From the IMG/VR virus record IMGVR_UViG_3300027996_003878: DNA of 64,000 bases; one strand, given 5' to 3'. Within the stretch, counting starts at the first letter, position 1, and every line of letters begins with the position of its first letter. A model generated the notes under the pieces. It was not told the origin of the DNA, made no database searches, and saw only the letters and a program-made list of their open reading frames with translations. This stretch comes from a virus (lineage: Duplodnaviria > Caudoviricetes). Both the position numbers and the translations under genes were made by a program. Positions 3,072 through 40,163 of the stretch are shown one piece after another.

Positions 3072-4076
3072 TTAAGCAACAGACTTGTTGCCACGAGCAA
3101 CACCACGCGGGTTGGTGATGCCAATGCCAATGATTTCGCTGACAACCCAGCCAAGCTTAAGCTGCTTAGGCTCATCAGCCGGAAGGACCTCAATGTCCTG
3201 ACGAACAGGCATAACACCAACGAACTCAGGGTCAGCGCAAGCGTAAACAGTTCCAGGCGGAACAATCTTGCTAACCATGATGTCAGAGCCCCAAACGTGA
3301 GCATAAAGGCCGGTCTGAAGGATCTCGCGCTGCGTGACAGGATCAACCTCGCCACCGCCGGCACCCTGGCCACCGCCGGAAGCCCAGTTAAGGATATCAG
3401 TGAACTCGTTGATGTTCATGAAGAACTTGCTGGTGACAAGGTCCCAGCGATCAACTTGCTGCTTAAGCTCAACAAGATCGCGCTTAAGCATACCACCGTC
3501 AGCGATATCCTGACTTGTATTCTCAACGTCAGCAGCTGCATCGATAGCGGCGAAAACGTTTGCATCCTCTTGTGCCATGATCTCCTGACGAGCCTTCTGA
3601 ACTGCGCGGTCGATGACGTTAAAGCGGCGACGCTTGACCTCAGCGATACGAACAGTGGGGTTTGAGTAAAGCTCAAACTCAGGAACCGTAACACGATCAC
3701 CGAAAACTCGGCTCTCAGGACCCGTGCCATTGCTTGAAACAACAACAGCCGCAACATCAATATCACGATCATAAACAGGAAGGGCGCCTTGCGGTAACGG
3801 ATCGACTACAAGTGCTCTACGAGCAATTCCCTGATAATCTAGGTTTCGACGGATGGGGTTAGCCATTGCCTGAGCAAGAGCAACCTTGCCCTCATGAGTC
3901 ATGATAGCGCGTGAAATTAACTCATCACGCTGCTCAGCATTAAGGCCAGGCTGACCTGCGAGTGCAAGATTTGAGGGCGCATTGTCCTCTAAAATTGCAG
4001 CATACTTAGTAAGAGTCGTAAGCGCGTCCTTTAATGAGGAAGCGTTTAACTCTCCTTTTGAATTAAACATTGACAT
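3072..4076 (-). CDS. Major capsid protein (HK97 fold)
   Basis: 334 aa. Pattern PIRRNLDYQGIARRAL.VDPLPQGALPVYDRD...FEL.SNPTV.I.EVK.RRFNVIDR...ARQEIMAQED is typical of large-phage MCPs. High-GC codons, followed by a strong terminator and preceded by a cement gene. Confidence 0.88.
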   Translation of the reverse strand: MSMFNSKGELNASSLKDALTTLTKYAAILEDNAPSNLALAGQPGLNAEQRDELISRAIMTHEGKVALAQAMANPIRRNLDYQGIARRALVVDPLPQGALPVYDRDIDVAAVVVSSNGTGPESRVFGDRVTVPEFELYSNPTVRIAEVKRRRFNVIDRAVQKARQEIMAQEDANVFAAIDAAADVENTSQDIADGGMLKRDLVELKQQVDRWDLVTSKFFMNINEFTDILNWASGGGQGAGGGEVDPVTQREILQTGLYAHVWGSDIMVSKIVPPGTVYACADPEFVGVMPVRQDIEVLPADEPKQLKLGWVVSEIIGIGITNPRGVARGNKSVA

Positions 4077-4231
4077 AATTTTTTTTACTCCAAAGTGAAG
4101 AGGTTACCTGCCTAAGCCAGTACCCTCGATTTATATGTTTAGAAGGCAGAGGCCTGCTATTCACAGGCCCCTTACCATGCTTAACTAATAAGTTAAGAAA
4201 CTAAGCAAACTAAATAAGCTAAAATTATAGC

Positions 4232-4909
4232 TTAAAGCTCAGGATTCCAGTGGAATATAGCCTCGACAAATTGCGCCGCCGGAGCTGCTGCGCCCGGAGG
4301 AGAATTTTGCGCCTGAGTAAGGCTAAGAGGTGTTGTAACCAAAGAGCCGCTTGTAGCGAACTCAATGAAACGACCAAGAACAACAACCTCGAATGCGCTA
4401 CCTGCATCGGGGGTCAAAAGACCAGCAGCTGTTGCGAAAAGCGGGTCTCCACCAGCAAGAGCCGGGTTCGTGGGAAGAAGGCCACTATTGACCGTTGTAT
4501 CACAAGCATCCAATGTAACAGCATAAAGACCGGGCTTGTCCCAAAGAGTCCACTTACCAGAAGCTGTAGCTGTGTGCGGACCAAGAGCAGCACCGCCAGT
4601 TACGGTACGACCAGCGAGACCACCAACAACCTCACCAAACAATGTGCCATAATTTGTTGCACCGTCATCAGTGAGGAACAGCGGACGAGCGCCACCTGCC
4701 AATGTAGTCGTAGCAACAGGGCGGGTGTTATTTGATGCAACATAACCGTCCTCGATATCTGAAGCAGCTTCGTCTGTGCCGCCTGATGCAAGAGTTGCAA
4801 CAAAATCAAGAGTTGCAACCTCACCACCAAGGATAGTATTTGTCTGAGCGTCAAGCGCGTCAAACTGACCAAGAGGCTGAATACCGGGGTTTAAAATTCT
4901 TAAAGCCAT
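4232..4909 (-). CDS. Capsid cement/decoration protein (paralog 1)
   Basis: 225 aa, Gly/Ala/Thr-rich, immediately upstream of the MCP. Shares MxRIxxxG..P..F.D, P.x.xDD, ASG[KR].T.W and LF....GLLT with 12208..12900. Confidence 0.6.
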   Translation of the reverse strand: MALRILNPGIQPLGQFDALDAQTNTILGGEVATLDFVATLASGGTDEAASDIEDGYVASNNTRPVATTTLAGGARPLFLTDDGATNYGTLFGEVVGGLAGRTVTGGAALGPHTATASGKWTLWDKPGLYAVTLDACDTTVNSGLLPTNPALAGGDPLFATAAGLLTPDAGSAFEVVVLGRFIEFATSGSLVTTPLSLTQAQNSPPGAAAPAAQFVEAIFHWNPEL

Positions 4910-5008
4910 ATCAATTCCTTTTTTTAGTACGTTAGTGTACTAATTATTTTGTTTCTTTCTTTCATCTAAGTCTTACGATATATCAATGAGAATAAAAATT
5001 TCTCATTA

Positions 5009-5027: not shown

Positions 5028-5070
5028 ATAACAACAGCTTTCAATATCAAATTGAATTTATTATATAAAT

Positions 5071-6609: not shown

Positions 6610-7860
6610 CTAGCCTATAAGCCTTTTAGTTGCTGCATCAAAGTCTGATCCCTTCATCTTCTTCTTTTTATCTTCTTCTTTTTTATCTTCTTGCATACTT
6701 TTTTTCAAAGAAGATGTATTTTCTTTTAATTGTTTCAATTGTTTTTTTAGCTCACTTAGTCCGGCCGATTCGCGCAGCATTGACTTTTTCAATGGACCAC
6801 AAGCGTTTACAATATCATCAAGCTCAGTGCCGGGAAGCAAAAAACTTGTAAGCATTTTCCACTTACTATCTTCATGTTCTTTAATCATTCCTTCTACAAT
6901 TTGACAGTACGCGCTTAGCTTTTTTTGATTTGACGTTAAATTATCTTTATAAACATCAAAAAACTTCAAAAGATCATCTACTACCTTTGGATCAACTAAA
7001 ACAGTAATAGCTCTTTCGTCTTGACTTTGCAAAGACGCCCCCATTGCATTTCGAAGCTTCATTCGCATACGCGAAGCCTCTTCAGCCTGCTCTTTAATAG
7101 AGCCAGCAAGCTCAGAAAAATCAAACAAGGCTTGCTTATCATCATCACTTAATTTTGTTATCTCAATGTATTCAGTAAGCTTGTCATCAATCTCTTCCTT
7201 CAGCTCAGTGGCATCTTTAATTACCCCTGCACTAAGCTTAAGGGTATTTTCAACAGCTGATTTTGCGCTCCATAAGCCAAACAGCCAAGCGCCAAGTCTA
7301 GTCGCTGCGCCAGTTCTTACCGCCCACTTTGGCACTTCTTTGAGAGCCACTCCTGTGAAAAGCCTGGCTAAGAGGCTCAGCAGCGCTCCCGGATTAGCTT
7401 GCTTCGTTATTTTATTTGACTTGACACGAGCTAATTTGGAAGCGCAATCATCTGCGAGCTTCATCATTTCATATTCATCATTACGATCTAAAAGAAAAGC
7501 TGACTTTATTAACTCGTTCATTAAATCATTCTTAGCATGAACATAACGACGCTGAACAAGCAAACCATCATTAGGCTTAGATACAATGTCGCAAATGATA
7601 TTTTGACGCTCTAAATTGTTTTCAACCAAACCATTCACTCTATCATAAGCGGGCGCAACAATAGCAGGATTTGGATGAGCTTGCTCCATGATATGCTCCT
7701 CCTCTCCATTAGGTTGAACTCCATAAAGAGCTTCTACAGTAGAAATTTCATACCGAGATGTCTCTTCATCATAAGCTTTTTTAACATTGCTTGTATCAAT
7801 AAGACCTTGCTCTTTCGCAATTTCAGTATAAAGTTCAAAAATTTCACTATAAGGATTCAT
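6610..7860 (-). CDS. Hypothetical head-region protein with AHP module, hydrophobic segment and coiled coil
   Basis: 416 aa, operonic packing. IMEQAHP motif; KKA, KLA and KQA sites; amphipathic NPGALLSLLARLFTG...LGAWLFGLW. Confidence 0.75.
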   Translation of the reverse strand: MNPYSEIFELYTEIAKEQGLIDTSNVKKAYDEETSRYEISTVEALYGVQPNGEEEHIMEQAHPNPAIVAPAYDRVNGLVENNLERQNIICDIVSKPNDGLLVQRRYVHAKNDLMNELIKSAFLLDRNDEYEMMKLADDCASKLARVKSNKITKQANPGALLSLLARLFTGVALKEVPKWAVRTGAATRLGAWLFGLWSAKSAVENTLKLSAGVIKDATELKEEIDDKLTEYIEITKLSDDDKQALFDFSELAGSIKEQAEEASRMRMKLRNAMGASLQSQDERAITVLVDPKVVDDLLKFFDVYKDNLTSNQKKLSAYCQIVEGMIKEHEDSKWKMLTSFLLPGTELDDIVNACGPLKKSMLRESAGLSELKKQLKQLKENTSSLKKSMQEDKKEEDKKKKMKGSDFDAATKRLIG

Positions 7861-7880: not shown

Positions 7881-8981
7881 TTATTTTATATTTCTTAAAA
7901 CTTCTTCTGCCGCATCTTCAGCAAATTCATCTACAACCTGCTTTATTGAATTAAATCCAATAGGCATCTCAATTTCCGTACTATTTATCCTATTTGCCCT
8001 GTCAAGTTTAGATGCAATATCTTTATAAGATGCAACGTTATTTATATTCCAATCATTCATATGACGCGCAAATGCCGGATAAACCGATTGAAGCCAATTC
8101 AGAAGGGTTTCATCTACATCGTTATAGATTAGCTCTACAGCCCAAGCCGTTTCACTATTATTGGTAAATCTTTTTTGACCCCAACCAGTTGTCCGAAGAA
8201 TATCTTGAACATCATGTTGTGTGATCTTTTTTGTCGGGTCGTAGCCTGCACCAGGAACTAAAGTTGCACCAGGAGCTAACGTCTTACCGGGGGCAGGTTT
8301 GTCTTTTTTGAAATAATCATACAGCTTAATTACACCTACTGTTCCGACTACAACGCCTGATAAAATCAAAGCTGTTTTTAGCGCCCATGCAAGAGCGCCT
8401 GCAAAAAACAATCTAATCTTACCAGCATTTCTTGGCCTCATTGAGGGGCCAAAAAGACCCTTAAGCCGAGCCCAGAGACCTTTGCGTCCTTGTTTAGTAA
8501 TTACTAAACTAAGGTCACTTGTACTAGCTGCACTTATAGATCCAGCGCCAGCAAAAGCAGCATCTCTTGCTGCTTGATCAAGCTCAGATCTTGAAATCTT
8601 TTCACCTTTTTCGAGCTTTGGCCCTAGTCTACCAACGAAACTATTGTAAACTTTTAAAAAATTTACGCCGAGCCCTTTTTCAACAGCAAGGTACAATCCA
8701 AATAATAAAGGATTTAATCTAAAAAGAAGAGTAGGCGCCATCAAACTAATTAAACTAACTACTGGCTGATCTTTATTTACATTATTTTTAATATGATTTG
8801 ATATCGCGCTTTTCCAAGAATCAAGGCGAAGTTTGTCCGTCAAACTAGCATTCTTTACAAGATAGTAATCTTGTAAAGAATCAAAATCATTTACAACAGC
8901 CAAAGCTGCACACTTAAGCTCTGACTTTCTGGATTTGACGATATTAGACATAAAAATAAAATTAAACAGCTTTATCCACAA
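7881..8981 (-). CDS. Hypothetical head-region protein with hydrophobic helices (probable start about 8951, MSNIVK)
   Basis: 366 aa ORF. Hydrophobic stretches LLFRLNPLLFGLYLAV and LFFAGALAWALKTALILSGVVVGTVGVI. Confidence 0.75.
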   Translation of the reverse strand: MWIKLFNFIFMSNIVKSRKSELKCAALAVVNDFDSLQDYYLVKNASLTDKLRLDSWKSAISNHIKNNVNKDQPVVSLISLMAPTLLFRLNPLLFGLYLAVEKGLGVNFLKVYNSFVGRLGPKLEKGEKISRSELDQAARDAAFAGAGSISAASTSDLSLVITKQGRKGLWARLKGLFGPSMRPRNAGKIRLFFAGALAWALKTALILSGVVVGTVGVIKLYDYFKKDKPAPGKTLAPGATLVPGAGYDPTKKITQHDVQDILRTTGWGQKRFTNNSETAWAVELIYNDVDETLLNWLQSVYPAFARHMNDWNINNVASYKDIASKLDRANRINSTEIEMPIGFNSIKQVVDEFAEDAAEEVLRNIK

Positions 8982-8996: not shown

Positions 8997-11375
8997 CTAC
9001 GACCAGGGTTGTCGTGTAAGTCCATTGGCTTTCATTTGCGACAAAGCACTGTTTTTTAATCGCGACAGACGACCAATAACTCTACTAAGCCGGTTACTGT
9101 GCTCCCTCATCAACTTCCTATCCTCTTTACGATCTTGATAACCACCTATTGCGTTTTCTAAATCCTTCATAAGTTTTTCTGTATATTCTGGAAGTTGAGG
9201 TAAGTTTTTAGAGTTGCCAAGATACATCTGAGCAAAATCTCCAGGCCGACTTATCCCACCTGCAATATCACTTGATGCTATTTCTCTACGAGGTCCAAAC
9301 CTCTTATAAATGCCTTTACTATACTCATCAGCGACATCCAGAAGGATATTACCGTCCCTATCAATAGGGAACTCTCTAGGCTTTTCGCGCCTTTGCTCGC
9401 GGCCTTGGCGGCGCTTAAACCAACGGCTTAGATCTGTTTCACTTTTTTTTCCCGACTTTATACCGAGCAAAAGCTTCACAAGCTCCAGAACAGCAGCTTC
9501 ACTTAAACCAAGCTTTTCACGCGCCTTTTCAACTGCCTGTCGCGTTTTTGGGTCAAGGCCTGCTCCAGGTGCTCCAGGTACTCCAGGTGCTGCGGGTCTC
9601 GGTCGAACCTCTGTAGCTCCCGGCCCTTCGGTAAGCTCTTTTAAAGGAATAACCAAATCGTGTAGCAAGAGGCCTTTGGGGTATTGCTCTTTATATTGCT
9701 CTTTATACCGCTTGTGGTAAAGTTTTAATGTTTCAAATATCTTATTTTTGATTCTAACAACATCATTTATATAGTTTGGATTTTTTCTTTGCCTAGCAGC
9801 ATTTTCAAGCGATACGAGCATCCACGTCAGATCCTGTGCACTAACTCCATCCAACCCGCCGGGGGTTATATGGTCTATGCTTATTAAGCCGCGTGAAATC
9901 AGCCAATCCATAAAAGATTTCACAGAAGCTAAATCTTTAGGATATATTGGCTTACCTCCAAACATATCATACCACTGCTCTTTCACCTCTAGTTTTTTCA
10001 GAAACTCCTTAAGGTGATCAGTATTAACTTTTGCATTCTGTAATGAAGGTGTTGTTTTTAAATCAAGATCTTTATGAGCATCTTTAGCCTCACGGATAGC
10101 AGTGGATGTTTTTGGCCCCCAAATCCCATCGTCTTTAATTTCACGAACACGCGGCACTTTAACTAAAAGCTGCTGCATCTCTTTGATAGCCTGCCCTCTA
10201 GGCATTGAAGGTCCCTTTTTGGCGGCAGGAGCGGCAGGGGCGGCGCCAGTTCCGCCAGGGCGAGGTGTAAGCAGAGCCTCTTTAATATTAATACCTTTCC
10301 AAAGTTCCTTTGTTTTTTTGATATAATCATCGAGGCCTTCTACATTTTTCAGCTCCTCCGCGCCTGGATCACCTTTTGTAATAGCCTTTTTTACTTCAGA
10401 GAATTTATAATATTCTCCAATTTTTTTAAGGCTTTCGAGGAGCCCTTTCATCGTTTTAAACCCAGACTCAGCTGTATAATCTTTAATTTTAATAGCATTT
10501 GGAATTGCCTTATTTTTTAAAAAATCCCGAAAATTATTAACGAGCCCCTCAGGTACTCTCATCTCACCGGGCTTAATCTCTTTTTTTGCAGCTGGGGCTT
10601 TTGCTGGACCTTCGGTTCTGCCGTAAACTCGACCGAGCCAGGCGCTGAAGGACCTCTTTACTTCGCTTTCATTTCTATATTTTGTGCCAACTAGTTCTTG
10701 TGCTAATCTGGCATGCTCCTCTTTATCCTTAGACATTTGATTTGCCGTTCGGAGATAATCCGAGGGGCTCTTCCCGGATTTCGCTGGCCTCTCAGTCATG
10801 TCTATCGTAAACATTCCCTCGTAGTTACTGTCACCACCCGGAAGAGATTGACGTTTTCCCGGATCAAGCCTAAAAACTGGCACATAAAGATTGTCTACAA
10901 ATGCTTCTACAACTTGCTTGGCAATATCTGCAGTCTTCTGCTGCGCCTTTTTGCTCAACTTAGCTGAAGCATACTTTCCCGTAGGTTGCTTTTTAACAAT
11001 CTCCTGGATCTTCTTACTTGCTGAAGGATGCGTGTACATAATGCCAAACTCAGAAGGACCAACCTTTACATCTCCTTCGGGATGAGCTTCGTCCATCATC
11101 TCTTCGCCGGCATCTTTTAAGTCTTTTTCAGCTCTCTTTAAGCGAGCCAACTTTTCATCAAGACTATTCGCCTCTTTGTTAAATCCCTTTGAGCGAAGTC
11201 CTTCTGACAAACGAACAATATTCAAATACAAATCATCGGTAGGATCAAATGAAGCTTTGGCGGCTTGCTTTACTACTTCCTGCTTCTTTGGCGTAACCAT
11301 CCCCTTGTCTGAGGCAACTTTAGCCAAGCTACGCATCACTTCACTGTCATAAAAATCAACATGCTTTAAAGTCAT
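8997..11375 (-). CDS. Large putative internal virion protein with AHP module and peptidoglycan-binding domain
   Basis: 792 aa. MMDEAHPEG motif; GQAIKEMQQLL...DDGIWGPKTSTAI PG-binding motif; Pro/Ala linkers. Confidence 0.75.
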   Translation of the reverse strand: MTLKHVDFYDSEVMRSLAKVASDKGMVTPKKQEVVKQAAKASFDPTDDLYLNIVRLSEGLRSKGFNKEANSLDEKLARLKRAEKDLKDAGEEMMDEAHPEGDVKVGPSEFGIMYTHPSASKKIQEIVKKQPTGKYASAKLSKKAQQKTADIAKQVVEAFVDNLYVPVFRLDPGKRQSLPGGDSNYEGMFTIDMTERPAKSGKSPSDYLRTANQMSKDKEEHARLAQELVGTKYRNESEVKRSFSAWLGRVYGRTEGPAKAPAAKKEIKPGEMRVPEGLVNNFRDFLKNKAIPNAIKIKDYTAESGFKTMKGLLESLKKIGEYYKFSEVKKAITKGDPGAEELKNVEGLDDYIKKTKELWKGINIKEALLTPRPGGTGAAPAAPAAKKGPSMPRGQAIKEMQQLLVKVPRVREIKDDGIWGPKTSTAIREAKDAHKDLDLKTTPSLQNAKVNTDHLKEFLKKLEVKEQWYDMFGGKPIYPKDLASVKSFMDWLISRGLISIDHITPGGLDGVSAQDLTWMLVSLENAARQRKNPNYINDVVRIKNKIFETLKLYHKRYKEQYKEQYPKGLLLHDLVIPLKELTEGPGATEVRPRPAAPGVPGAPGAGLDPKTRQAVEKAREKLGLSEAAVLELVKLLLGIKSGKKSETDLSRWFKRRQGREQRREKPREFPIDRDGNILLDVADEYSKGIYKRFGPRREIASSDIAGGISRPGDFAQMYLGNSKNLPQLPEYTEKLMKDLENAIGGYQDRKEDRKLMREHSNRLSRVIGRLSRLKNSALSQMKANGLTRQPWS

Positions 11376-15124: not shown

Positions 15125-18100
15125 CTAGTAACGCTTGTTTGCGAAAGCTCTCTCAAGCTCAGCAACCAAATCAGACTTTTCTGCTTCAGGCGCCGGCAGC
15201 ACAACCTCACCCGTGCCAATCATTCCAACCTGCGGAATTGAAGCTGACTTTTGCATCGGCTGACGCTCAGCCCAACGCTTCATGCTATTAAAGCCCTCGT
15301 CATTCCACTTCATAATTTCGCTAACTTGCTCGTTAACCGCAGAACGGTCATTGTTAAGCATGCCACGGCGAACCATGTCGTAAGCTAGCTCATAAGCTCT
15401 AGAGATCTTCACCTTATAAGTTTCTTTTTCCTCTGCAACCTTCTTTGCGTCATATTCCTTAAGAAGTTCATCAGCGAATTCTTTTCCACCGTCTTTTGCC
15501 TGGCTAAGATAATCTTTCCAGTACGCAACAGCCGCTTCATCTAGACCCTGGCTGATTAAAGCCGGGAAGTCATTGGCTGGGTCAATACGGCCAGCCAAAA
15601 CCAACTTCTGAATGTCTTCAGCCATTTTACGGATACGAGGAGGGGCTTGAGCCACTTCCTTCATAGCCGCATGTTGCTCCTTAAGATCTTCGACTCTAGC
15701 CAAGTTGCCCTCTGCCGGCATATCAAGCTCAACAGTTGTGCCGCCTTCAGGATGAGCCTTGTCAAGCATGTCACTGTAATGAAGGCCCTCTTGAGCTAAC
15801 TTGGCGCGATAGAGAGCGCGACCCTCTTTCGTTGTAAGGTCAGGCTCATCAGAGGCCATGGTTGAGAGTTCACTCTTAACAGCGTCCATAACTAGTTTCT
15901 CCAAGTCAAAATCATTAACATCATCATGATCGCCATCATGCATCATGCCGTGGTCATGCATCATGCCGTGGTCATGCGTCATGTCATCCGACTCAAAAAC
16001 CTCTTTTGTTTTCTCTTCCTCTTCTTCTGTCTGGACCTTATCAAACGGGGAGGGCGGTAGCGGCTTTTGATCCTCGGTCAAAACTTTTGCAAGCTCGGCC
16101 CCGGCATCTTGAGCCTTCTTTTCCAAAGCAGCAGTGCCCTTTGCATATTTAACAAATGAATCCATCAACTTGTAGCAGTCAGCAAACGTCTTTTTCGTAT
16201 CAGCAACTGCATCCGAAACAAGACCATTGACATACTCTGTATCCGTTGCACTTAGCTTTGCCTTGTTCGCATAAATATGGGAAGCCAAGGAAAGCTCTTC
16301 AAAATGTTCCTTCAAATCAGCCTGAGCTTGCTTCATACCAACGATAAGGGCAGTGCCAAGCTTTTGCTTCATATTAACCAAGGAAGCCGTGGCAGGGGAA
16401 AGCTCCGCTAATTGAGCCATTTCATCCTCGGCCTCTTCGCCTTCCTTCTCTTCTTCAAGAGCTTCAACTGCCTCATCGATATCATCAAGAAGGCCTTTTG
16501 CCTGCTCAACGAGATCCGGCAAGAGCTTAGCCGGATCGGCGCCCTCTAGCTCATCAATAGCTGCTTCAGGCGTAGGCGCCTCTTCAGCCATCTCAGGGGC
16601 CTCAGCGGCGGGCTGCTCAGGAACCTCTTCAGGAGCCATCTCCATCTCACCCTCTAATCCAGCTTCAGGCATTGCCAACTCAGCCTCAGGCATCTCCTCA
16701 GCAGGCTGCGCTCCTTTGAAAAGAGCCGCAGCCTTAGCAAATCCGCTAGTACGAATGGTGCTCAGAATCTTTCGGCCAAACTGCTTAGTTGCAATTGAGT
16801 CATAAAGAACATCGGCCTTGTTGCCAGCAAGCTCAGCGACAGTAGCTGTGAGGATTAGCTTGTCATCTGCAAAAACTTGCCAACAAGATGCTGACGGATT
16901 ATCGGTACCATCAGCGGATGCTGCTTTAACAAACTTCGCGCTAAGTTTTGCGCGTAATAGCTTTTCTTTTTTCTCTAGATCGCCAGTGTATAGACCATCG
17001 GTATCTCCAACCTCCGGGAATGGACCTGAACCATTCATCTGACGATCCTCATCACGATCAAAAGGCTCTTTTGGATAAACCTGCGGCTCATTGGGGCCGC
17101 CGCCGCCTTGGTAATAAGCTTCTTTTTTAGCAAGATTATTTTTAGCCCTTTCAAGCGCCGCCTGACGACGAAGAGCGCGTCGCTCTTGCTCCGCCATACG
17201 CTGAAGCTCGCGCTTCTTCTCCGCATCTCCAGGGTGCAAACCATCAACCGGACCAGTACCATCGCCAAGACCCGTCATTTGCTTGTCCTCGGTATCGCGA
17301 ATCGCCTCCGCATCACCCATGGGCTCGTAACGAGGCCGTCCTGGAGTGGGTTCATTTACACCACCACCACCTTGAAAGTAAGCTTTCTTATTTGTCATAT
17401 TGTTTTCCTCACTAGTATATAACTTGCCAAAATCCTGCTTTAATTCGTTTAAATTTGTAAGAAGAGAATTAATCGCACTCGAAATTTTAAAATATTTTGA
17501 ATCACGATTACTTAAAGAAGCAATTTTATTACCAGAATTATTTAATTCATCTTCTTGTAATTTGCATTCTTTATCATCCTCATTTTCCTGAAGTTGCTCA
17601 AGCTCACAAGTATCAGAGCTGTCATCCTGTTCCGCCTTCTCTTCCGCTTCGGCTTGTTCGGCTTCTTCTGCTCTTTCCTTGTACTCTTCTGCTTGTAGTG
17701 CGCTTAGCTTATCTGAGGCTTCATCTAATTTATGATAAGCATCATCAAAGCCCTCAAGAAGGTCGCGCAAATCTTTTTTCTTAGGCCTTTCTTCCTCAAG
17801 AAGACCTTCAAAAGCGTGAACTCCATCTCTCATAGATAACAAAGTGTCACGCAATGCCCCCAACAAGGCATCCTCTGAACCCTCGGCATCTTTCTCTTCG
17901 GCCTCTAGGTCAGAATCCTCGTGAGCGCTCTTTAAGAAAGCCTCTTTTGAGTCTATGTATTGAGCAATGCTATTAGCAGCAGCTACAATATGCCTAATCT
18001 TAGCGCGAGGATCTGCCCCACTTACTACAATTGAAAGTTCAATCGGATTCAAATCCACATTTATTTCACCATATGTAGTTTTACCTCTCATATGATTACA

Positions 18101-19684: not shown

Positions 19685-20488
19685 CTAAAATTGCACCCAA
19701 CCGCCGGTCTCAACCGGCCCGACGCCTCGAACTCCAGAATAATTATCATATCCACCAACCGCTGGCACTGTATGTACAGTATCCCCTTCACTTTGATAGC
19801 TTTTCAATATCTGTCTTAGTATTTCTTTCCTATACTTCAACTCCTTATGCTTTCTATCTCTACCCTTTTCATCTACAGGGTAATAAGGAGTCTGATGATA
19901 AAAATCAGTATACGGAGCCCACGACTGCCTGGGGGAATAAAAGGGAGGGACGCTCTCTAAACCAAACATGTCATAAAGCTGAAATCCAACATCTATATCT
20001 TGAACTTCATTTACATCACTTTTATGTGCATTCTGTATTAAGTCGCAATAAAAGCTCTCTGTATCTTCCTTAATTTTATCTCCAAATTGAAAGCCAAGCG
20101 CTTCTCGAATTGCATCCTCTGGCTTCCAATCACTATACTTAACTCTAAATAATGCCACTGCCAACCCGGCCCTATCACTGCCGTGCAAGCAATGAATATA
20201 AGTAGGAGTATTATCCAATAATAATGAAACTATATTTTTATTCAAAAAATCGGTAAAATATGTATTATTTGTTTCCCCACCGCTAAGAGGAATTACTACA
20301 TGCTCCATTCCTAATTTATTTACAATTGGAGCTATCAAAGATGCAATATTTCTATCTAAACTAATAATGCGATTTATTTTCTTTGACATCGCAATCAAAT
20401 CCTTTGCTGAAGGCGCTCCGCCCCTATAAATATCTTTGATTACTTTTTTAAATCGAGCTGGCATATCACAAACTTTCAACAATTCCAT
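19685..20488 (-). CDS. Cys-based (PTP/dual-specificity family) phosphatase (probable start about 20464)
   Basis: IYRGGAP and HCLHGSDRAG (C-x5-R active-site loop); non-catalytic C-terminal extension. Confidence 0.8.
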   Translation of the reverse strand: MELLKVCDMPARFKKVIKDIYRGGAPSAKDLIAMSKKINRIISLDRNIASLIAPIVNKLGMEHVVIPLSGGETNNTYFTDFLNKNIVSLLLDNTPTYIHCLHGSDRAGLAVALFRVKYSDWKPEDAIREALGFQFGDKIKEDTESFYCDLIQNAHKSDVNEVQDIDVGFQLYDMFGLESVPPFYSPRQSWAPYTDFYHQTPYYPVDEKGRDRKHKELKYRKEILRQILKSYQSEGDTVHTVPAVGGYDNYSGVRGVGPVETGGWVQF

Positions 20489-25123: not shown

Positions 25124-26836
25124 TTAGAAAGCTGGAGGTGAGGGAAGCTCAGACTCTCCTCCAGCTCCAGGAAGACCTGCGGCATTTGCCTCCTCTTCCT
25201 CGCCAGCAACGGGCTCAGTGATTTCATCTGAAGAAGAAATAGTGCGTAACTCATTTAAGGGCATCTTTGAAAGAACAAGCTTCTCTCTAGCCAAAATTGC
25301 CTCTTGAATAGATTCATCCTTCATTTTTCTTTGCTCATCCTCCCAGTCCAATCCCAAAGACCGATAAAGGGTTTGAATTGAAACTCTTCGAGGTTCGCCT
25401 GTTAAATTTTGAAGAACATTTATGTAGTCACCCAAATCAAATAACGACATGTGGTTCCATTCTACCTTTGGAACAATCAATATCTTTTTGCCATCTTTGT
25501 ATTCATAAAAGTCATTTATTTTAGAAATAGGCGCAAATATTTTACGTCGCAGCCATGAGCTTATCATATTCCTAAATTGCATGTATCGCTGCCTTAAGAC
25601 ATCTAAGGCAACGCCTCCATTTGCATACGTAACATCAGAGCCGCCATCCATCACAACAGAAGGAACCATCAGCCCTGTATAAATCTCTTTCAAAAGCTGC
25701 TGAACATCACCATTAATATCAATTATAGATCCTGATGCTCCAACTCTATCAATCTGAACGGCTTCATGAGTAAATATTTTAAAGTCTTTATCATACTGAG
25801 CTTGCTCAAACACCTGCCTCCAAGCCTCAAGGTCTGTTGGGCTGGGTTTATAAGAATCATTACCAACTTTAACCACAGTCAGTGGATTGATTAAATTCGC
25901 AGCTTGAGCAAACTTAGACTCCCTAAGTTGATCAAAAAGCATTAAAGTTCTGAATGAAGATACAATCAACCCCGTCCCTCGAACCTCATAAGGGCTAATC
26001 CTTCGAGCTATATGAGAACAATAAAAATTACTTAGAGGGATATTTTCACCACGTCGCACATGCTCAATAATACTACTATCAAGACGCTGACGCTGTTGAA
26101 TGTCAGAAGGTCTATTGGAATTCACAATTCTTCTTAAATTCTCATCAGGCCTTAAACTTATGATAGGCTCGCCCGCAACAACGGAGTGTTTCACCACTAT
26201 ATAGTCAGGATTTTGAATGGTGAGCCGGCTCCACTTACCCATACCTTCATTTAATTCTGCATAAACAAAAGCCTCACCTAAAACCCAATACTCTTGAGCT
26301 ATTTGAGTGCAAACATTTACAAGATTTAATTCATCATTCATTTCTTGAAAGAATCTTTGAACCTTTTCATTCTTACAAGTAATATTTAATTTAGAAATAG
26401 GATAAGTAGAGTGCAAAGAGATAGCATTCTGCACAATCGGATTCAAAGCAAAAAAAGCTCTACTCCAAGCATTTATAGTAGCACGATCTCTGGGCAGGTT
26501 GAGATTGCTAGTCAACCAAAGGGGGCTGTAAATTTCTGGTATTTGCCTTACAGTGCCACCAGAACCCCTCCAGCCGCCACCTCCAGAATTCGCAGCTCCA
26601 TCATCGGCATTTTTACGAAACGCCCTCATATTTGAGATAACGTTCCCAGCATCAGTAGAAGCAAACTTATCAATCATATAACCCGAGCCGCCTTTATGCT
26701 CTCGAAAATGACCCGCCGAAACTTCCTCTTCCAAAACACCTCTTCGATATTGACTAACCGATTTAGCCATATGTGGCGATACTATTGAAGGAAGCTTGCG
26801 CTCATTTAAAAATTTTTCAGAATTTGTCTCAGCCAT
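25124..26836 (-). CDS. Portal protein
   Basis: 570 aa. R.FF...P.V..AI.LH..YP, EY..LGEAF, W..L.I.NPD, YE.RG..L, YANG.VAL..L.QRY..FR..I..WL..KIF: typical large-phage portal pattern. Lies downstream of the terminase. Confidence 0.82.
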   Translation of the reverse strand: MAETNSEKFLNERKLPSIVSPHMAKSVSQYRRGVLEEEVSAGHFREHKGGSGYMIDKFASTDAGNVISNMRAFRKNADDGAANSGGGGWRGSGGTVRQIPEIYSPLWLTSNLNLPRDRATINAWSRAFFALNPIVQNAISLHSTYPISKLNITCKNEKVQRFFQEMNDELNLVNVCTQIAQEYWVLGEAFVYAELNEGMGKWSRLTIQNPDYIVVKHSVVAGEPIISLRPDENLRRIVNSNRPSDIQQRQRLDSSIIEHVRRGENIPLSNFYCSHIARRISPYEVRGTGLIVSSFRTLMLFDQLRESKFAQAANLINPLTVVKVGNDSYKPSPTDLEAWRQVFEQAQYDKDFKIFTHEAVQIDRVGASGSIIDINGDVQQLLKEIYTGLMVPSVVMDGGSDVTYANGGVALDVLRQRYMQFRNMISSWLRRKIFAPISKINDFYEYKDGKKILIVPKVEWNHMSLFDLGDYINVLQNLTGEPRRVSIQTLYRSLGLDWEDEQRKMKDESIQEAILAREKLVLSKMPLNELRTISSSDEITEPVAGEEEEANAAGLPGAGGESELPSPPAF

Positions 26837-29443: not shown

Positions 29444-31345
29444 CTATCTCTTAACTGCCTCCATGCCTGGGACATAACCTACAACAACAGGCAATGAACT
29501 CTTACTTTTAGCATTTTCATTGATTAAATTAGGATTGTGAATTGAAAACGCATTTGTTATATCAAACTTATAAGCTAAATAGGCATTCAACATAGCCATA
29601 AATCCATCATTTGGAGTTGATCCTTTTACGTAACGAATGCCAGTATACCCAGCTCGATCAACTTTGGGCTTAATCTCCATAGAGCAACAATGCTGAACTA
29701 GCCACCCGACCTTTTCATAATCTCCAAATGGAAATCTTATCTTTCCTTGCTTCATTAAATCATAAAGCTCTGCAATGTAATAATCTCTCTCAAACATAAT
29801 AGTACTTGGAAAGAAATCTGTCTTATATTTTATATGGCCATTTAGCCTAGATACAGCCTGGCTCCCTAAAAACTTCTCGCCAAACTCACGCTGCAACACT
29901 TCAGTAAGGTCATTGGCAAAGCCAATATCTCCCACCCCCAAAGTAACGCTATATTGCCGATAAATTTGCTCAACAATAGCCCTTTTACTTTCAAAATCAT
30001 TTTTCTTTAACCTTGTTGCAAAGTCTATTGATAAAATATGAGGGCCATCTGCCACTAAAATGACTGCACAACTATATGATTGACCTTGTTGAGATCTTTT
30101 TCCGCCAGCTCCAGTATCAATATCAACCTTTTGACCCCAGTCGCAACCTAAATAAACTTTTTTATTCTCATTGTAGGATATACTGGCTCTAAATTTCCTT
30201 TCACGATCTGCGCAATGCTGATCTATTTGCTCTGGCGTAATCGGAGAGGCATCGCCTGAAAAAAACTCACCCAAAACCTCGTTTTGATAAGCCCTTTCCG
30301 TATTGATAGGATGATTTTCAGGCTTTTCAGACAGAATTTTTTCTTTTGTAAACTCTGGCATATATAATTGGTTTATATGATAACCAACAAATGAAGCATC
30401 TGGATTATCATTAAAAGCAATCCACTTACCTCGCTCTGCCGCCTGCCTTTTATCTTGCTCATGACCGCAGTGGGTGCATTTTACAATAAAACCATGCAGC
30501 CAAATTTTCTCCCAATCACTTCCAGGGCCATACAAAGGAAATGTTTCCTTGCAGCTCTCGCACCCCAAATGAAAATATTGTTGAGAAGAGGCGTTCCATA
30601 TGTTCCAATACTCTGACCCTCTTTGTTTAGGCGTTCCAAAATAAACCTGGATACCCTCGCCAACCCTGCCATACTGAGCTTTTGCTAATGTCTTAGTTGC
30701 ATTGCCTAATGCCTCGCCCTTCATGTCCTGAACTTCGTCAAAAAACAAAACATCAACAGTTCTACCGCGCAATCTGTCCCCATTTAATCCGGTTGACTCA
30801 ATCCATATATGATTACCACCTGCAAACTGTTTGAATTGCAAAGAATCATTTGATGAAGTGGATGTATCTAACTTGGCTTGCAAGAATGTTTTATTTCCGA
30901 AGTTAGATTTAGAATTATTATAGTCTTTATAAGGCATTGCGCTAGCAATCATAGAATTTAACTTAACCTTAGTATAGGCATAAGCTAATTCTAATTGAGG
31001 AAAGCAATGCATAATTCGAATCGGAGGCCGATTCGATGCGCCAAAAGAGCCTGACGCAACAAAAAACAATTCAAGCGCAGCTGCCATTGTAGTTGCGCCA
31101 ACCTGGCGTCCTTTAACAAGGACTACAGGTTTCGAATCTTTTTCTAAAGATTTTAAACCAATGTATCTATAGATATCAGCAAACGGCTTATAGCCATTAC
31201 CATTTAGTCTAAAAGGGCGGCCATCTAATGTTAAATATTTTTCACAAAAAGCAACAGGATCAATTGCTAACAGATTTTCTTTAATCTGAGAAAACAGATC
31301 TTCCTTGCTGCCCTTTTTTATCTTAGAGGCGGCATCTCTTTTCAT
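29444..31345 (-). CDS. terL: Terminase large subunit (GpA-like, with zinc ribbon)
   Basis: KGRQVGATT Walker A, LRG.TVD.LFFDEVQD Walker B, GTPK coupling motif, CESC/CTHC ribbon, nuclease LGCDWG and PNDGFMA. Confidence 0.88.
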   Translation of the reverse strand: MKRDAASKIKKGSKEDLFSQIKENLLAIDPVAFCEKYLTLDGRPFRLNGNGYKPFADIYRYIGLKSLEKDSKPVVLVKGRQVGATTMAAALELFFVASGSFGASNRPPIRIMHCFPQLELAYAYTKVKLNSMIASAMPYKDYNNSKSNFGNKTFLQAKLDTSTSSNDSLQFKQFAGGNHIWIESTGLNGDRLRGRTVDVLFFDEVQDMKGEALGNATKTLAKAQYGRVGEGIQVYFGTPKQRGSEYWNIWNASSQQYFHLGCESCKETFPLYGPGSDWEKIWLHGFIVKCTHCGHEQDKRQAAERGKWIAFNDNPDASFVGYHINQLYMPEFTKEKILSEKPENHPINTERAYQNEVLGEFFSGDASPITPEQIDQHCADRERKFRASISYNENKKVYLGCDWGQKVDIDTGAGGKRSQQGQSYSCAVILVADGPHILSIDFATRLKKNDFESKRAIVEQIYRQYSVTLGVGDIGFANDLTEVLQREFGEKFLGSQAVSRLNGHIKYKTDFFPSTIMFERDYYIAELYDLMKQGKIRFPFGDYEKVGWLVQHCCSMEIKPKVDRAGYTGIRYVKGSTPNDGFMAMLNAYLAYKFDITNAFSIHNPNLINENAKSKSSLPVVVGYVPGMEAVKR

Positions 31346-32019: not shown

Positions 32020-32859
32020 TTAACCCGGATAGTTAGCCACAAAATCAAAATTATCAGTTGAAGCTGTATCAACCTCTTCTCGCCCTTTACCTCGGTCCCA
32101 CCGCATGGCATAACCCATATCACTGAGCAGCTGCATGATGGAGGCCTGCTCCCGACCTGTTAGCTCATATTTATCGCACATATGATCAAACGTATCTTCA
32201 ATGTCTTTACCAGAGCTAACCATTGAGTTTATACACGTCCGCGCCACATATGACTCAAACATGGGCACACAAACAACAAATGAAGCGGCCTTTGCCTTTT
32301 TAACCATACCATCAGCAGCTTCAGATTTTTTTCTCTTTTTACGGTGAGGGTATTTGTTATCGCGAATCTTGGTCAAATGCTCTTCAAGCCTTTTTATTCC
32401 ATCTTGGATTTCATCACGCGCTAGCTCAACCGCATCAATGACAATATTATTATCTAAATCCATTCTTACTGCTTTGGATATTTCCGAATCAAGTTTTTCA
32501 AGATAAGCAATTGCCCTCTCACAGCCAGAGGTCTCTTTACCCGTATGACTGGGTATTGAGCTTAATTTATCCCTTAACCAATCTAAAAAGTTGATTACCG
32601 TCCATTTCCAAGGGTCATCCTCAACCTCAACTTCCTCATCTTCAACGATGAGGCTGCCTGGTTCGTACTCTCCATCACTTCCAGGAATAGAGCCTAACAT
32701 TTCAGATAAATTACCTCGCACGTCCTCTTCCTCTACCTCCAAATCACCGTTATCATGAACATAAAATGACTCATTAGAATCGGGAGAATCCACGTACATC
32801 AAATCCTGAGCTATTAAACTTTTGAATTTATTATTTTTTGAAGATTTACTAATAGACAT
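32020..32859 (-). CDS. Hypothetical head-region protein
   Basis: 279 aa, acidic N-terminus, MVKKAKA site. Confidence 0.75.
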   Translation of the reverse strand: MSISKSSKNNKFKSLIAQDLMYVDSPDSNESFYVHDNGDLEVEEEDVRGNLSEMLGSIPGSDGEYEPGSLIVEDEEVEVEDDPWKWTVINFLDWLRDKLSSIPSHTGKETSGCERAIAYLEKLDSEISKAVRMDLDNNIVIDAVELARDEIQDGIKRLEEHLTKIRDNKYPHRKKRKKSEAADGMVKKAKAASFVVCVPMFESYVARTCINSMVSSGKDIEDTFDHMCDKYELTGREQASIMQLLSDMGYAMRWDRGKGREEVDTASTDNFDFVANYPG

Positions 32860-37213: not shown

Positions 37214-38005
37214 TTACTTCTCAAGCTTAGAATCTAACGAGGCATTTGATGAAAGTCTTTGATTACGATCTGTAAAAGACATTCCCTCTAGCCTACGATC
37301 ATACAATGCACGGGTTTGCTCAGCAACGTCACTACCAGGAACCTTGTTACCCTTAAGTGTAGTAAATCCACTGCTATAGTTATAGATCTTATGATCCATA
37401 CTACACTGAAAAACAGTATCCGCAATACGCGCCATCTGAGCGCCAGGATGATCTGGACATGTTCTCGTAGAAAGAGCAGTCTCAAGAGGTCGATAAGTTT
37501 TAAACCTATTTTCTATCAATTCGGCTGTATTCTTGACATCTAGAGCTTTGTCAGACTCTTCTCTAGCTCTTGTATAAGCTTCATCTCGCTGTTCGCTGCG
37601 AAGTTTAGCTCGAAGCCTGTCTATCTCTTTATCCTGAGCTTCTTTAAACTTTAAGCGTTCTTCCGCTGCATTCAGCTTCATTAGAAGCTGATCGATGACA
37701 GACGCCTGTCTAACTAAAACAGGATCATCACTTTTATCAAACTTATTCGCTACAGCTACAATCGCCTCTAAATCCTCATCATACAAATCATCTATTGACT
37801 TTTCAGCCATGACCTCTATACCATCAGCAGCCTTATTTAATATAGAATCAACAGTCACCAAAACTGAGGCTACATGATTAAGCAGATCTTCATTGCCTGT
37901 TTCTTCTGCTGCTATTATAATTGGATTCTCAGACAAATCAGTACTGATTTTTTCTGAAAAAATTCTAAGCAGATCAGCTACTTTAACAACTTTTTCATGA
38001 CTCAT
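37214..38005 (-). CDS. Hypothetical protein with a C-terminal zinc-ribbon-like motif
   Basis: TCPDHPG...FQCSMDH; 263 aa. Confidence 0.75.
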   Translation of the reverse strand: MSHEKVVKVADLLRIFSEKISTDLSENPIIIAAEETGNEDLLNHVASVLVTVDSILNKAADGIEVMAEKSIDDLYDEDLEAIVAVANKFDKSDDPVLVRQASVIDQLLMKLNAAEERLKFKEAQDKEIDRLRAKLRSEQRDEAYTRAREESDKALDVKNTAELIENRFKTYRPLETALSTRTCPDHPGAQMARIADTVFQCSMDHKIYNYSSGFTTLKGNKVPGSDVAEQTRALYDRRLEGMSFTDRNQRLSSNASLDSKLEK

Positions 38006-38007
38006 AA

Positions 38008-39639
38008 TTACCCCATGTAAATTCTGGAATGTAAGAAAGACCCGCCTTCAGCAGTTTCGCTCATTTTCTTTCTATAAAGCGGGTGGCAATCGCCGTTTTT
38101 GTCTTGATAAACCTTATGAACTGGAAGATTTGTGTGACTGCAAATAAGGTGCTTGCTGTGCTTATGCTTGAAGGTTGCAGCACATTTCGTTACAGGAACA
38201 TCGTTTGATGACTTACCACCAAGACCATCTCTATACGCTTTAAACGCTGTATCAAAGGCAGCCTTGTCGCCAGAGTGCCTTAGAACATTAAGCGCATCTT
38301 CTGCCTTTAAATAATCATTATCTAACATCGCCACACGAACCTGATCGATTAAATCACTCGGCTTTAGCTTGTAAAGCGGAGAGGCTTTTGCCAACTCTCT
38401 CGTATCATTCACGCCCTGAGCCAACAAAGTTGAAATACCCTCTTCAGAGAAATCTAATATATTTCCATTTGCCAAAACAACAGTGGGCTCAACAACCTCA
38501 CCGTTCTTGACTTTAACAGGAACCTTAAAACCAGTAGAACTATCAATTGAAACTGAGTAAAAAATGGTATCTGAATTGTTATCAGAAACTGAAACCTGAC
38601 AATTTCTGTGGCCAAACTTACCCATCAAAAATCTTATTATGTTACGCCCTCTATCAACAGCTTTTTTACCTAACAAAAACTCTGCTGCACCAGCGTGTGA
38701 AGAAAGCCTTGCAGCAATTTCCTTCACCTCTTCAGGTTGCTCAATTTCAATATCTTTAACCGAAGCAGTCAATTTATCAACTTCTTGATAAAGAATACCA
38801 TTAACTGTATGATTTGAAGGAGTTTCCTTGGCCGCCTCTGCCATCATGACAATTCGCTCAACTTCACTCATGGGCTCTGGAGTTCCGTTTTTAGCCTCAG
38901 CAATAACTCCGAGAAGCTTTTGAACATCAACCTTATAAGATTTACCCGCTGTAGACAGCAGATGTTCTTTAAGATCATCTTTGCTAATTGAAACAAAGCC
39001 CGCCTTGCTTAAGAACATAGTGGGAATCAAAGCCCTATCATCCACGACCTCAACTGGAATTAATGCATAACTCTGACCTCGCGGCGTGTCATAAGTTGCC
39101 TGACAAATCAATACATCGCTCTGGCCGGCTACAACATCAATCTTTTTTGGATGAATTCCAGTCTTGTTAAGCTCATGCAAGCAAGTTTTTTGCGCTCGCT
39201 TTGCCACTACTGCTGAATATCGCTTTAGAGGGGTGTCAGTATCGAAGGCAGACTGAAGTGCGTTAGACAAAAGAGGATCTGCCAGCTTTTCAAAACTTTC
39301 ACTAACAAAATCCTTCCCCTCATTGGGATCTCTTTTCATTTTATTCAGAGCAGTTTTCTTCGGAAGAGCTAGCTCCTCAACAAAATGTTCCGCAAACTTA
39401 TTGTTAGATCTATATAATTTATTATATACATCCTTTAGCTCAGCGCGAGTGATAAATAAAGCATCCCCCTCAGCTCTGCGTTTCAAAAAATTTGAAATAC
39501 CCACAACGGTTTGATCCATAGGGAATTGCTGAGCCAACCTGTTAGCCTTTACAGCTAACATATCAACGGAAAACTTCTCATTATCGTAAATTGCCTTAGC
39601 GGCTTTTGTAACAATATCGTTTAATTTATAGAGACTCAT
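38008..39639 (-). CDS. Hypothetical protein with an internally repeated domain and Cys/His C-terminus
   Basis: 543 aa. Two V.V...D.....PV.V....PT repeats; C-terminal CAA...CSH...CHP. Confidence 0.75.
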   Translation of the reverse strand: MSLYKLNDIVTKAAKAIYDNEKFSVDMLAVKANRLAQQFPMDQTVVGISNFLKRRAEGDALFITRAELKDVYNKLYRSNNKFAEHFVEELALPKKTALNKMKRDPNEGKDFVSESFEKLADPLLSNALQSAFDTDTPLKRYSAVVAKRAQKTCLHELNKTGIHPKKIDVVAGQSDVLICQATYDTPRGQSYALIPVEVVDDRALIPTMFLSKAGFVSISKDDLKEHLLSTAGKSYKVDVQKLLGVIAEAKNGTPEPMSEVERIVMMAEAAKETPSNHTVNGILYQEVDKLTASVKDIEIEQPEEVKEIAARLSSHAGAAEFLLGKKAVDRGRNIIRFLMGKFGHRNCQVSVSDNNSDTIFYSVSIDSSTGFKVPVKVKNGEVVEPTVVLANGNILDFSEEGISTLLAQGVNDTRELAKASPLYKLKPSDLIDQVRVAMLDNDYLKAEDALNVLRHSGDKAAFDTAFKAYRDGLGGKSSNDVPVTKCAATFKHKHSKHLICSHTNLPVHKVYQDKNGDCHPLYRKKMSETAEGGSFLHSRIYMG

Positions 39640-40163
39640 TATGCGTCTCTCCTTTTTTCAGCTACTTTTGTAAAATATTTCGAATTAAGCTCTTCATGAG
39701 TTGCAAATAAATCTTTCAACTGAGACTCAGGGAGCCCTGCTAATAAACTTACGGTCAAACCTTCACTTGAAGCTAGTTTTTCTGGCAAAAACCCACACAC
39801 TGACTTGGCCTCTTCATTAGGAAGGCCAAGTGATGATAAAGAAATACGAGTCACGGGCGTATCATTATAAAAAATATTTATAAATTTACCGGACTTATCT
39901 GAAACAGCATTCCAATTAGAGCTTGATTTAATTTGCTCACCCTGTTCATTGTCATACATAGCAACAATATAGTCACCATCATTTGACTTATGGATCTGCC
40001 AAAGCCCATCAATACTGTCACTCTTATCTACAAACCGAACGACATCAAAGGCCACTTTCTTTATACGGTGGCTAACATCTTCTAATTTATAAGCTTTCTT
40101 ACGATTAAGCTTATCTTGAAGTTCACTATAATCAACAGACAAATATCTCATCACATACTCCAA
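39639..40163 (-). CDS. Hypothetical protein
   Basis: 174 aa; its stop overlaps the next ATG (TAATG). Confidence 0.75.
   Translation of the reverse strand: MEYVMRYLSVDYSELQDKLNRKKAYKLEDVSHRIKKVAFDVVRFVDKSDSIDGLWQIHKSNDGDYIVAMYDNEQGEQIKSSSNWNAVSDKSGKFINIFYNDTPVTRISLSSLGLPNEEAKSVCGFLPEKLASSEGLTVSLLAGLPESQLKDLFATHEELNSKYFTKVAEKRRDA

Follow-up and report, generated by a model that had tools for sequence, protein, structure and literature searches.

What does a five-residue motif that recurs throughout the head proteins of a phage signify, and what might read it? The question is raised by a 64,000-nt stretch of viral DNA (IMG/VR record IMGVR_UViG_3300027996_003878; ‘the window’ hereafter denotes this whole stretch), in whose head region (3-40 kb) the motif [LIVMF]-x-K-x-A recurs, written Phi-x-K-x-A below and numbered with Phi as P5, Lys as P3 and Ala as P1. 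An initial annotation had taken it for a maturation-protease code, and every instance that it listed is present in the open reading frame (ORF) to which it was assigned, for example LTKYA|A of the major capsid protein (MCP) at 3999-4013, the bar marking the supposed cut. Here, we argue that Phi-x-K-x-A is probably the recognition and cleavage motif of the prohead serine protease of this phage, with cleavage itself a prediction. The motif is enriched, its excess is restricted to the head module, it is conserved among relatives, and the module encodes a domain of protease fold with an invariant His and Ser; that this protease reads the motif, that cutting takes place, and at which points, we infer. 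Feature coordinates refer to the minus strand, which carries nearly all window genes, and ORFs are named by their lower coordinate.

Enrichment and conservation of the motif

The 32 ORFs of 3-40 kb (11,620 aa) contain 55 copies of the motif against 21.3 expected from per-protein shuffles (z 7.1), and the excess persists when shuffling is restricted to segments of 40 or 20 aa (z 7.5-7.7). The 29 ORFs of 40-64 kb, with the replication genes, show no excess (15 copies against 11 expected, z 1.2), so that the enrichment over shuffles and over replication genes implied by the initial annotation is indeed found. Among 400 patterns of the form [LIVMF]-x-X-x-Y, Phi-x-K-x-A ranks first in the head region, the runner-up reaching z 4.4, and no residue pair at any spacing there rises above z 4.4. 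The excess disappears in the same ORFs when the motif is reversed (A-x-K-x-Phi, z 0.45), when Lys is replaced (Phi-x-R-x-A, z -0.2; Phi-x-E-x-A, z 1.5) or left free (Phi-x-x-x-A, z 0.9), when P1 is swapped (Phi-x-K-x-S, z 0.25; Phi-x-K-x-G, z -0.7; Phi-x-K-x-L, z 1.2), when the register is shifted (Phi-x-x-K-A, z -0.3) and when the hydrophobic position is negated (nonPhi-x-K-x-A, z -0.9). Moreover, the sites are gathered towards N-termini, with 25 of the 55 in the first 80 residues against an expectation of 22% (p 1e-4).

The signal is one of protein and not of DNA. The Lys and Ala codons inside the motif mirror background codon use, and the other five reading frames yield 0.4-1.3 motifs per 1000 against 4.7 in the coding frame, which together rule out a DNA-level repeat as the source. 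Use of a motif known from T4, phiKZ, SPN3US or assemblin was likewise rejected, none of them being enriched in the window: [LI]-x-E of T4 gives z 1.6, [SAG]-x-E of phiKZ/SPN3US z -0.7, A-x-E of SPN3US z 1.2 and [VLI]-x-A-S of assemblin z -1.5.

Comparison with relatives extends this result. Megablast of 20 kb of the window against phage genomes gave no match, leaving it with no nucleotide-level relative among sequenced phages; IMG/VR, by comparison, holds more than 290 loci whose MCP is 81-87% identical to that of the window, on contigs of up to 480 kb, and a similar number of portal loci. A search for related loci with ORF 34526-36343 as the query found nothing. Neighbouring proteins in these loci are only 25-60% identical to their window counterparts, a degree of divergence that suits them to testing the conservation of a short motif. 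ORFs were called in 174 related loci, grouped by BLASTP to window proteins and aligned group by group, and an alignment position was counted as conserved when at least half of the orthologues have the motif there. The 25 orthologue groups of 3-40 kb contain 31 conserved Phi-x-K-x-A positions, compared with a median of 2 and a best of 14 for the other 399 patterns counted in the same way, and with 2 in 14 control groups of 40-64 kb. With the window itself excluded, the number of motifs in the orthologues is 2.4 times that predicted by shuffling for 3-40 kb and 1.15 times for 40-64 kb.

The two defining residues account for this conservation. In the head-region groups, identity at the motif Lys and Ala exceeds that of the flanks by means of +0.22 and +0.33, whereas other Lys and Ala residues show an excess of about 0 (Mann-Whitney p 1e-4 and 1e-9, motif against other); in the 40-64 kb groups, the motif Lys and Ala are not conserved above their flanks. 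Lys and Ala are thus retained where the flanks diverge, as the initial annotation would have it. At conserved positions, Phi is kept in 91% of cases and Lys in 82%, with Arg in 5%, both x positions are variable, and P1 is Ala (87%), Ser (5%) or Gly (3%) and almost no other residue.

The closest cultured relative, Bacillus phage G (Donellivirus gee; 497 kb), whose MCP, portal and protease are 52%, 35% and 33% identical to those of the window, provides a further comparison. Within 150 kb of its genome, the head module gp4-gp28 is the only enriched bin (25 motifs against 9.3 expected, z 5.2); the tail module reaches z 1.4, and every other bin stays at |z| < 1.5. An uncultured 485-kb phage, LR745208, is moderately enriched on the head side of its genome (z 2.8), and in Rctr197k the motif is not enriched (z 1.1). 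In PaBG, the homologous stretch of the MCP reads M-S-A-Y-A|S, and the four head-region proteins inspected have no Phi-x-K-x-A in their first 100 residues. Taken together, these comparisons suggest a code specific to the phage G-like lineage.

The protease-scaffold polyprotein and other marked proteins

Between the portal gene (25124-26836) and the MCP gene (3072-4076) lies a gene for a protein of 1199 aa (15125..18724), in which an N-terminal prohead protease domain is followed by a long C-terminal part; its 47 orthologues are mostly of 1100-1276 aa. Residues 106-217 match PHROG families of head maturation proteases (phrog_18299, E 2e-13; phrog_4523, E 8e-7). In an alignment of 37 such N-terminal domains, His134 (in PLCxDHKS; 18323-18325) and Ser185 (in VSMGTAVG; 18170-18172) are invariant and 51 residues apart, and their conservation suggests that they are the catalytic residues of a core spanning aa 46-250 (17975..18589). 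The core also carries a CxxC...CxH insert at aa 195-211, between the putative catalytic Ser and the last strands, in which C195, C198 and C209 are invariant and H211 is found in at least 90% of sequences; judged by sequence, the insert looks like a zinc-binding knuckle, a feature that T4 gp21 and HK97 gp4 are not known to have.

Support for the fold comes from structure prediction. The domain is modelled by AF2 with a pLDDT of 72 (core >85), and a Foldseek search with the model ranks T4 gp21 (5jbl) and proteases of herpesviruses at the top, with E 4e-3 to 3e-2 and prob values reaching 0.99. VIA-align places it nearest to the protease of varicella-zoster virus (Z 9.6, root-mean-square deviation (rmsd) 2.6, 113 aligned) and to T4 gp21 (Z 9.4, rmsd 3.0, 124 aligned), by a modest margin over unrelated MCE-domain matches at Z 8.0. 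Comparison of the domain sequence with solved structures returned chance-level matches only, and no Pfam family matched the polyprotein. On the strength of the fold and PHROG matches, we treat the N-terminal domain as a prohead protease of the assemblin/T4 gp21 fold, in agreement with the encoded protease that the initial annotation had proposed. A complex prediction for the protease core (aa 46-262) with MCP aa 1-60 scored 0.01, a value obtained without controls that speaks neither for nor against binding.

The C-terminal part is presumed to be the scaffold, because of its position and because its phage G counterpart is split: there, the protease is encoded on its own as gp19, with gp20 and gp21 as the next genes, whereas the window has protease and scaffold fused. 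It holds about ten conserved motif positions, and the conserved P1 residues of the whole polyprotein fall at 38, 267, 602, 672, 861, 871, 1035, 1065 and 1161. Two of these sites flank the protease core. FKKVA|A (aa 34-38; 18611..18625), ahead of it, has the motif in 38 of 43 orthologues, and FLKSA|H (aa 263-267; 17924..17938), at the C-terminal end of the domain, is replaced by LEKLA|D or LEKVA|S in about two-thirds of the occupied orthologues (21/33 to 23/34). Phage G gp19 carries LVKTA|A, LEKVA|S and LLKIA|S at residues 41-45, 246-250 and 272-276, homologous to the window sites that flank the core, LVKTA|A corresponding to FKKVA|A and LEKVA|S to FLKSA|H. Further along, the motif is found in 26/35 orthologues at FVKAA|S (aa 598-602; 16919..16933), in 31/39 at LFKGA|Q (aa 668-672; 16709..16723; Lys in 38/39), in 26/34 and 29/34 at the adjacent FVKYA|K (aa 857-861) and LEKKA|Q (aa 867-871; together 16112..16156), in 26/33 at IRKMA|E (aa 1031-1035; 15620..15634) and in 23/30 at MQKSA|S (aa 1157-1161; 15242..15256; Lys in 29/30).

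The MCP (334 aa; 3072..4076; phrog_2522, E 7e-79; homologous to phage G gp27) and the portal protein (570 aa; 25124..26836; portal PHROGs) are both marked. The MCP site at aa 22-26 is kept in 66 of 66 distinct sequences. The portal site FRKNA|D (aa 73-77; 26606-26620) has Lys in 73 of 73 orthologues, with Ala (49), Gly (16) or Ser (8) at P1 and Gln at P1' in 57, for a consensus of G-Phi-x-K-x-[AGS]|Q; a second portal copy, IDKFA at aa 55, is kept in none of 30 orthologues. Portal gp14 of phage G carries MAKQA|A at residues 16-20.

Besides MCP, portal and polyprotein, conserved sites occur in ORFs 6610, 7881, 8997, 21502, 23705, 32020, 34526 and 37214. Two of these proteins have no known family. 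The 416-aa product of ORF 6610 (6610..7860) carries ITKQA|N (aa 151-155; 7396-7410) within a poorly conserved linker, with the motif in 34 of 50 orthologues, which have an additional N-terminal leader, MxRSEIFDSFVKIA|Q. The 366-aa product of ORF 7881 (7881..8981) carries LVKNA|S (aa 41-45; 8847-8861), and Phi-x-K-x-A is retained there in 12 of 12 sequences at a flank identity of 0.15; the longest form of this ORF begins at TTG, and an ATG 10 codons downstream (MSNIVKSRK...) is the likelier start, which would shift the numbering by 10. The 792-aa protein of ORF 8997 (8997..11375), with weak peptidoglycan-binding matches (Pfam PG_binding, below cutoff), has three sites set among indels in the orthologue alignment, namely LAKVA|S (11313-11327; 24/37 orthologues), VVKQA|A (11262-11276; 33/37) and FNKEA|N (11169-11183; 27/38). 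ORF 21502 (21502..23712; 736 aa; a weak Pfam glucosaminidase match below cutoff) carries VVKVA|D (aa 22-26; 23635-23649), and every member of the subfamily having this N-terminus keeps (Q)VVKVA|G.

The remaining proteins vary in how strongly the site is kept. In ORF 32020 (32020..32859; 279 aa), MVKKA|K (aa 185-189; 32293-32307) corresponds to Phi-V-K-E-A|Q-K in 38 of 44 orthologues, and the Lys is present in 43 of 44. LNKAA|D of ORF 37214 (37214..38005; 263 aa; site at aa 56-60, 37826-37840) is found as a motif in about half of the orthologues, relatives having a second conserved position near aa 101. The case of ORF 23705 (23705..25030; 441 aa) is weak because of small numbers: the motif of LGKQA|G (aa 126-130; 24641-24655) is present in 6 of 10 orthologues, with Gly at P1' in 7. 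Leaders bearing the motif occur in relatives only for the orthologues of ORFs 20466, 18887 and 32942. Short N-terminal leaders ending in the motif in the window itself are those of ORFs 28413 (A11), 37214 (A10), 38008 (A14) and 5071 (A11); conservation is lacking at those of 37214 and 38008, and no usable orthologues were available for 28413 and 5071. The initial annotation had spoken of about 20 marked head proteins, a figure that is too high: 12-15 proteins with conserved sites is nearer, and several ORFs of 31-40 kb are not demonstrably head proteins, one of them being a tRNA nucleotidyltransferase homologue.

The arrangement of genes in relatives bears on the role of the motif as well, since the breakpoints of gene fusions, of fissions and of leader losses coincide with the motif, which itself remains on the downstream part. 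The phage G MCP, for example, starts at about aa 46 of the window MCP and has no N-terminal segment closed by the motif. ORF 20466 (20466..21176; 236 aa) starts with MLNKNS|YIKRLP and lacks a leader in the window, whereas its relatives have a leader of about 30 aa with two motifs, the second lying directly before the conserved block IRKLPNGKYRV (48-sequence alignment). A cassette, K-x-[AG]|Y-[FY]-Q-G-G-G-G-V-N-E-P-T-P, is found twice in the polyprotein (residues 446-448|449 and 534-536|537), at the junctions TNKKA|YFQGGGG (aa 444-448; 17381..17395) and AKKEA|YYQGGGG (17117-17131), with an extended form, K-x-[AG]|Y[FY]QGGGGVNEPTPxxxKY, at aa 444-470 and 532-556. The cassette stands at residues 1-8 of a separate protein of 280-440 aa in ten relatives (e.g., L136:4271-4350), and at the junction where the same protein is fused behind the tRNA nucleotidyltransferase homologue in five others (e.g., the L104 ORF at +2680, aa 244-275). 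In the ten relatives with split ORFs, the tRNA nucleotidyltransferase and cassette ORFs usually overlap by about 14 nt.

Some head-region proteins lack the motif. The large terminase (29444..31345; Pfam GpA_ATPase/Terminase_6N) has 0 sites in the window, and its 71 orthologues carry the motif at 0.38 of the expected count, which may reflect avoidance in a protein that contacts the prohead, or chance. The 225-aa protein adjoining the MCP (4232..4909) likewise has 0 sites, with 66 orthologues at 0.82 of expectation; by gene order, it would be a decoration-like protein in the position of phage G gp26. The motif is absent from ORF 12208 as well.

Several observations concern the gene content of the window. 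The head-module proteins of 5071-6609, 8997-11375 and 21502-23712 have endolysin, peptidoglycan-binding or glucosaminidase-like matches, mostly below curated cutoffs, and all three carry N-terminal motif sites, making them candidate head-packaged cell-wall hydrolases; the phage G head module likewise holds an ‘endolysin’ (gp22/23). A PIN-PhoH fusion gene (27079-28371), the sole gene on the plus strand, lies between portal and terminase and is present in only 3 of the related loci. The tRNA nucleotidyltransferase homologue (CCA-adding-like; 33759-34520) belongs to the block upstream of the terminase. Finally, the first three ORFs (window 1-3000) stand apart in GC content (44.5% against 33-40%) and Lys content (1.7% against about 9% elsewhere) and are sparsely represented among the related loci retrieved; they may encode fibre-like proteins or be recent acquisitions.

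Cleavage, docking and other readings of the motif

If the motif is a cleavage signal, the protease would act inside the assembled prohead, where it would release itself by cutting on either side of its own domain (near aa 38 and aa 267), chop the scaffold part into pieces of about 10-330 residues, and trim an N-terminal segment of 26 aa from the MCP and of 77 aa from the portal. In about ten more proteins presumed to be packaged in the head, several with cell-wall-hydrolase-like domains, short leaders would be removed or domains separated. The set of carriers is the one expected of such a system, as the motif is found on MCP, portal, protease-scaffold, and leaders and junctions of other proteins, and is missing from the terminase and the decoration-like protein, matching the substrates of T4 gp21 and of the phiKZ/SPN3US type. 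Fixed residues at i, i+2 and i+4, separated by variable ones, and small residues alone at P1 fit an extended peptide lying in a protease cleft. A cut after Ala, read by an assemblin-like protease with a small S1 pocket, would fit these sequences; alternatively, the cut may fall after Lys (Phi-x-K|), which would reproduce the Phi-x-charged P3-P1 layout of T4 and of HK97.

Several observations weigh against cleavage at the motif. Only about 20 of the 55 window copies are conserved in relatives and more than half are not, a share that agrees with the roughly 21 copies expected by chance alone. Copies without conservation include IDKFA of the portal, LIKSA and VIKDA of ORF 6610 (where this applies to three of five sites), LRKFA of ORF 21502, IIKQA of ORF 34526, LKKDA and FAKAA of the polyprotein and most sites of ORF 38008. 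The site list of the initial annotation can thus be accepted as a code in part: the conserved copies stand, while roughly half of those that it named are probably chance occurrences. Many sites, moreover, display the hydrophobic register of an amphipathic helix (hydrophobic P5, P1, P3' and P6'/P7'), and AF2 draws both sites flanking the protease core as low-confidence helices, whereas proteases normally need an extended substrate. In an invariant LKKIA-P of the polyprotein (aa 41-46), the Ala is followed by Pro; this copy borders the folded protease domain and is probably structural. Lastly, the motif is kept at residues 2-6 after loss of a leader, both in ORF 20466 here and in the MSxNKxA|YFQGGGG proteins of relatives; removing 5-7 residues has no obvious purpose, so a motif at the extreme N-terminus is better explained as a binding signal.

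The main rival takes up that last point and regards the motif as a docking or capsid-targeting peptide that binds the scaffold, the MCP interior or the protease, with cutting elsewhere or not at all. Retention of the motif when the rest of a leader is lost speaks for it, as does the helix-like register around the sites, and the multiple copies in the scaffold would suit multivalent binding. We nevertheless consider it less likely: only small residues occupy P1, and a spacing of i, i+2 and i+4 accords with protease subsites; the sites lie at domain junctions and at points of gene fusion and fission, and they flank the protease's own domain, in phage G as in the window. MCP and portal, furthermore, each carry one conserved copy near the N-terminus, where the propeptides of T4, phiKZ and SPN3US end (PMC7411985). 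Docking and cleavage overlap, as the motif could be address and cut site together, in which case cargo would dock in the cleft of the scaffold-fused protease and be released by cleavage on activation; we put this combined role forward tentatively, as a version to be kept in mind and not as the expected one.

Two further explanations appear far less probable. One dispenses with a specific reader and sees a by-product of Lys/Ala-rich amphipathic helices or coiled coils, or chance combined with selective reading. Proteins of 3-40 kb are indeed richer in Ala (8.2% against 5.4% in 40-64 kb), the spacing around the sites is helix-like, and the chance share of the 55 copies is large. Shuffles that preserve composition, even within 20 aa, still leave z 7.7, however; the reversed motif, Phi-x-R-x-A, Phi-x-E-x-A, Phi-x-K-x-S/G/L and Phi-x-x-x-A all remain flat, Lys seldom gives way to Arg, and Ala gives way only to Ser or Gly, at sites whose flanks are 15-45% identical, and 31 conserved positions face a median of 2 for other patterns. 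Composition or helix bias is excluded by the local shuffles and by the reversed and substituted motifs, and this explanation is largely refuted. The other, equally improbable, proposes that the conserved Lys is covalently modified or cross-linked (by acylation, methylation or an isopeptide bond), with the flanking residues directing the reaction. It would account for the strong preference for Lys over Arg (82% against 5%), and HK97-type capsids use Lys in cross-links; yet no modifying enzyme was identified in the module, the motif reaches its highest density in parts that are normally discarded, namely the scaffold-like polyprotein and the N-terminal leaders, and the mature part of the MCP is without it.

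Relation to known prohead proteases and implications

If Phi-x-K-x-A is a cleavage motif, the system is of a well-known kind, and what is new are variants: the code, its lineage, the fusion of protease and scaffold, and the marked portal. The substrates of T4 gp21, which cleaves behind L/I-x-E, are gp23, gp22, gp21 itself and internal proteins that bear capsid-targeting leaders. The window resembles T4 in the fold of the protease and in the placement of the motif on the MCP N-terminus, the scaffold, the protease ends and, it seems, the leaders of unrelated proteins but not the terminase; it differs in the motif itself, in that the portal is also marked, in combining protease and scaffold in one 1199-aa protein, and in that cleavage here is predicted. 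The herpesvirus assemblin (MEROPS S21) cuts after Ala in (V/L/I)-x-A|S, and it has the same fold and would share a small P1 with the window protease if the latter cuts after Ala. The window motif, in contrast, requires a hydrophobic P5 and a Lys as P3, and nothing points to a special relationship of the two proteases beyond the fold common to all prohead proteases.

HK97 offers a different parallel, in that its gp4 protease removes the delta domain of gp5, with a cut after Lys in L-S-K|S. Likenesses include a Ser/His protease of the same fold and an HK97-type MCP, and reading the window motif as Phi-x-K would give Lys at P1. In HK97, however, the substrates are few and a long delta domain takes the place of a separate scaffold, whereas the window has a 26-aa MCP segment and many marked proteins. 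In phiKZ and SPN3US, many proteins of the head and of the ejection set are processed by gp175 and gp245, respectively, at S/A/G-x-E, which in SPN3US is AXE (PMC7411985, PMC10052503). Like these, the window derives from a giant phage in which MCP, portal and many head proteins are marked, candidate ejection proteins included; its motif is another one, its lineage is phage G-like with an HK97-type MCP (phrog_2522), and its sites are predicted from sequence, whereas those of SPN3US were mapped by mass spectrometry. Prohead proteases in general differ in specificity, and all those studied trim the MCP N-terminus (PMC7411985). A literature search that did not extend to one paper on the phage G capsid and proteome and one on the HK97 protease domain found no K-x-A-like prohead specificity and no processing data for phage G.

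To our knowledge, head-protease codes have been established experimentally for only a few phages, namely T4, the phiKZ group and a few small phages. Knowledge of such a code has made it possible to recognize, from genome sequence, which proteins are packaged and injected. A distinct code would allow the same for phage G-like megaphages, which have genomes of 200-500 kb and are widespread and almost wholly uncultured. It indicates where processing is likely to create new N-termini in MCP, portal and protease, and it flags the cell-wall-hydrolase-like proteins as probable head cargo. If the cut falls after Ala, the small-P1 specificity that is otherwise known from assemblins of herpesviruses would have a counterpart in phages. 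If, moreover, the motif serves as both address and cut site, the packaged or injected proteome, of several dozen proteins, would be predictable from sequence across the phage G-like clade, whose one cultured member is phage G.

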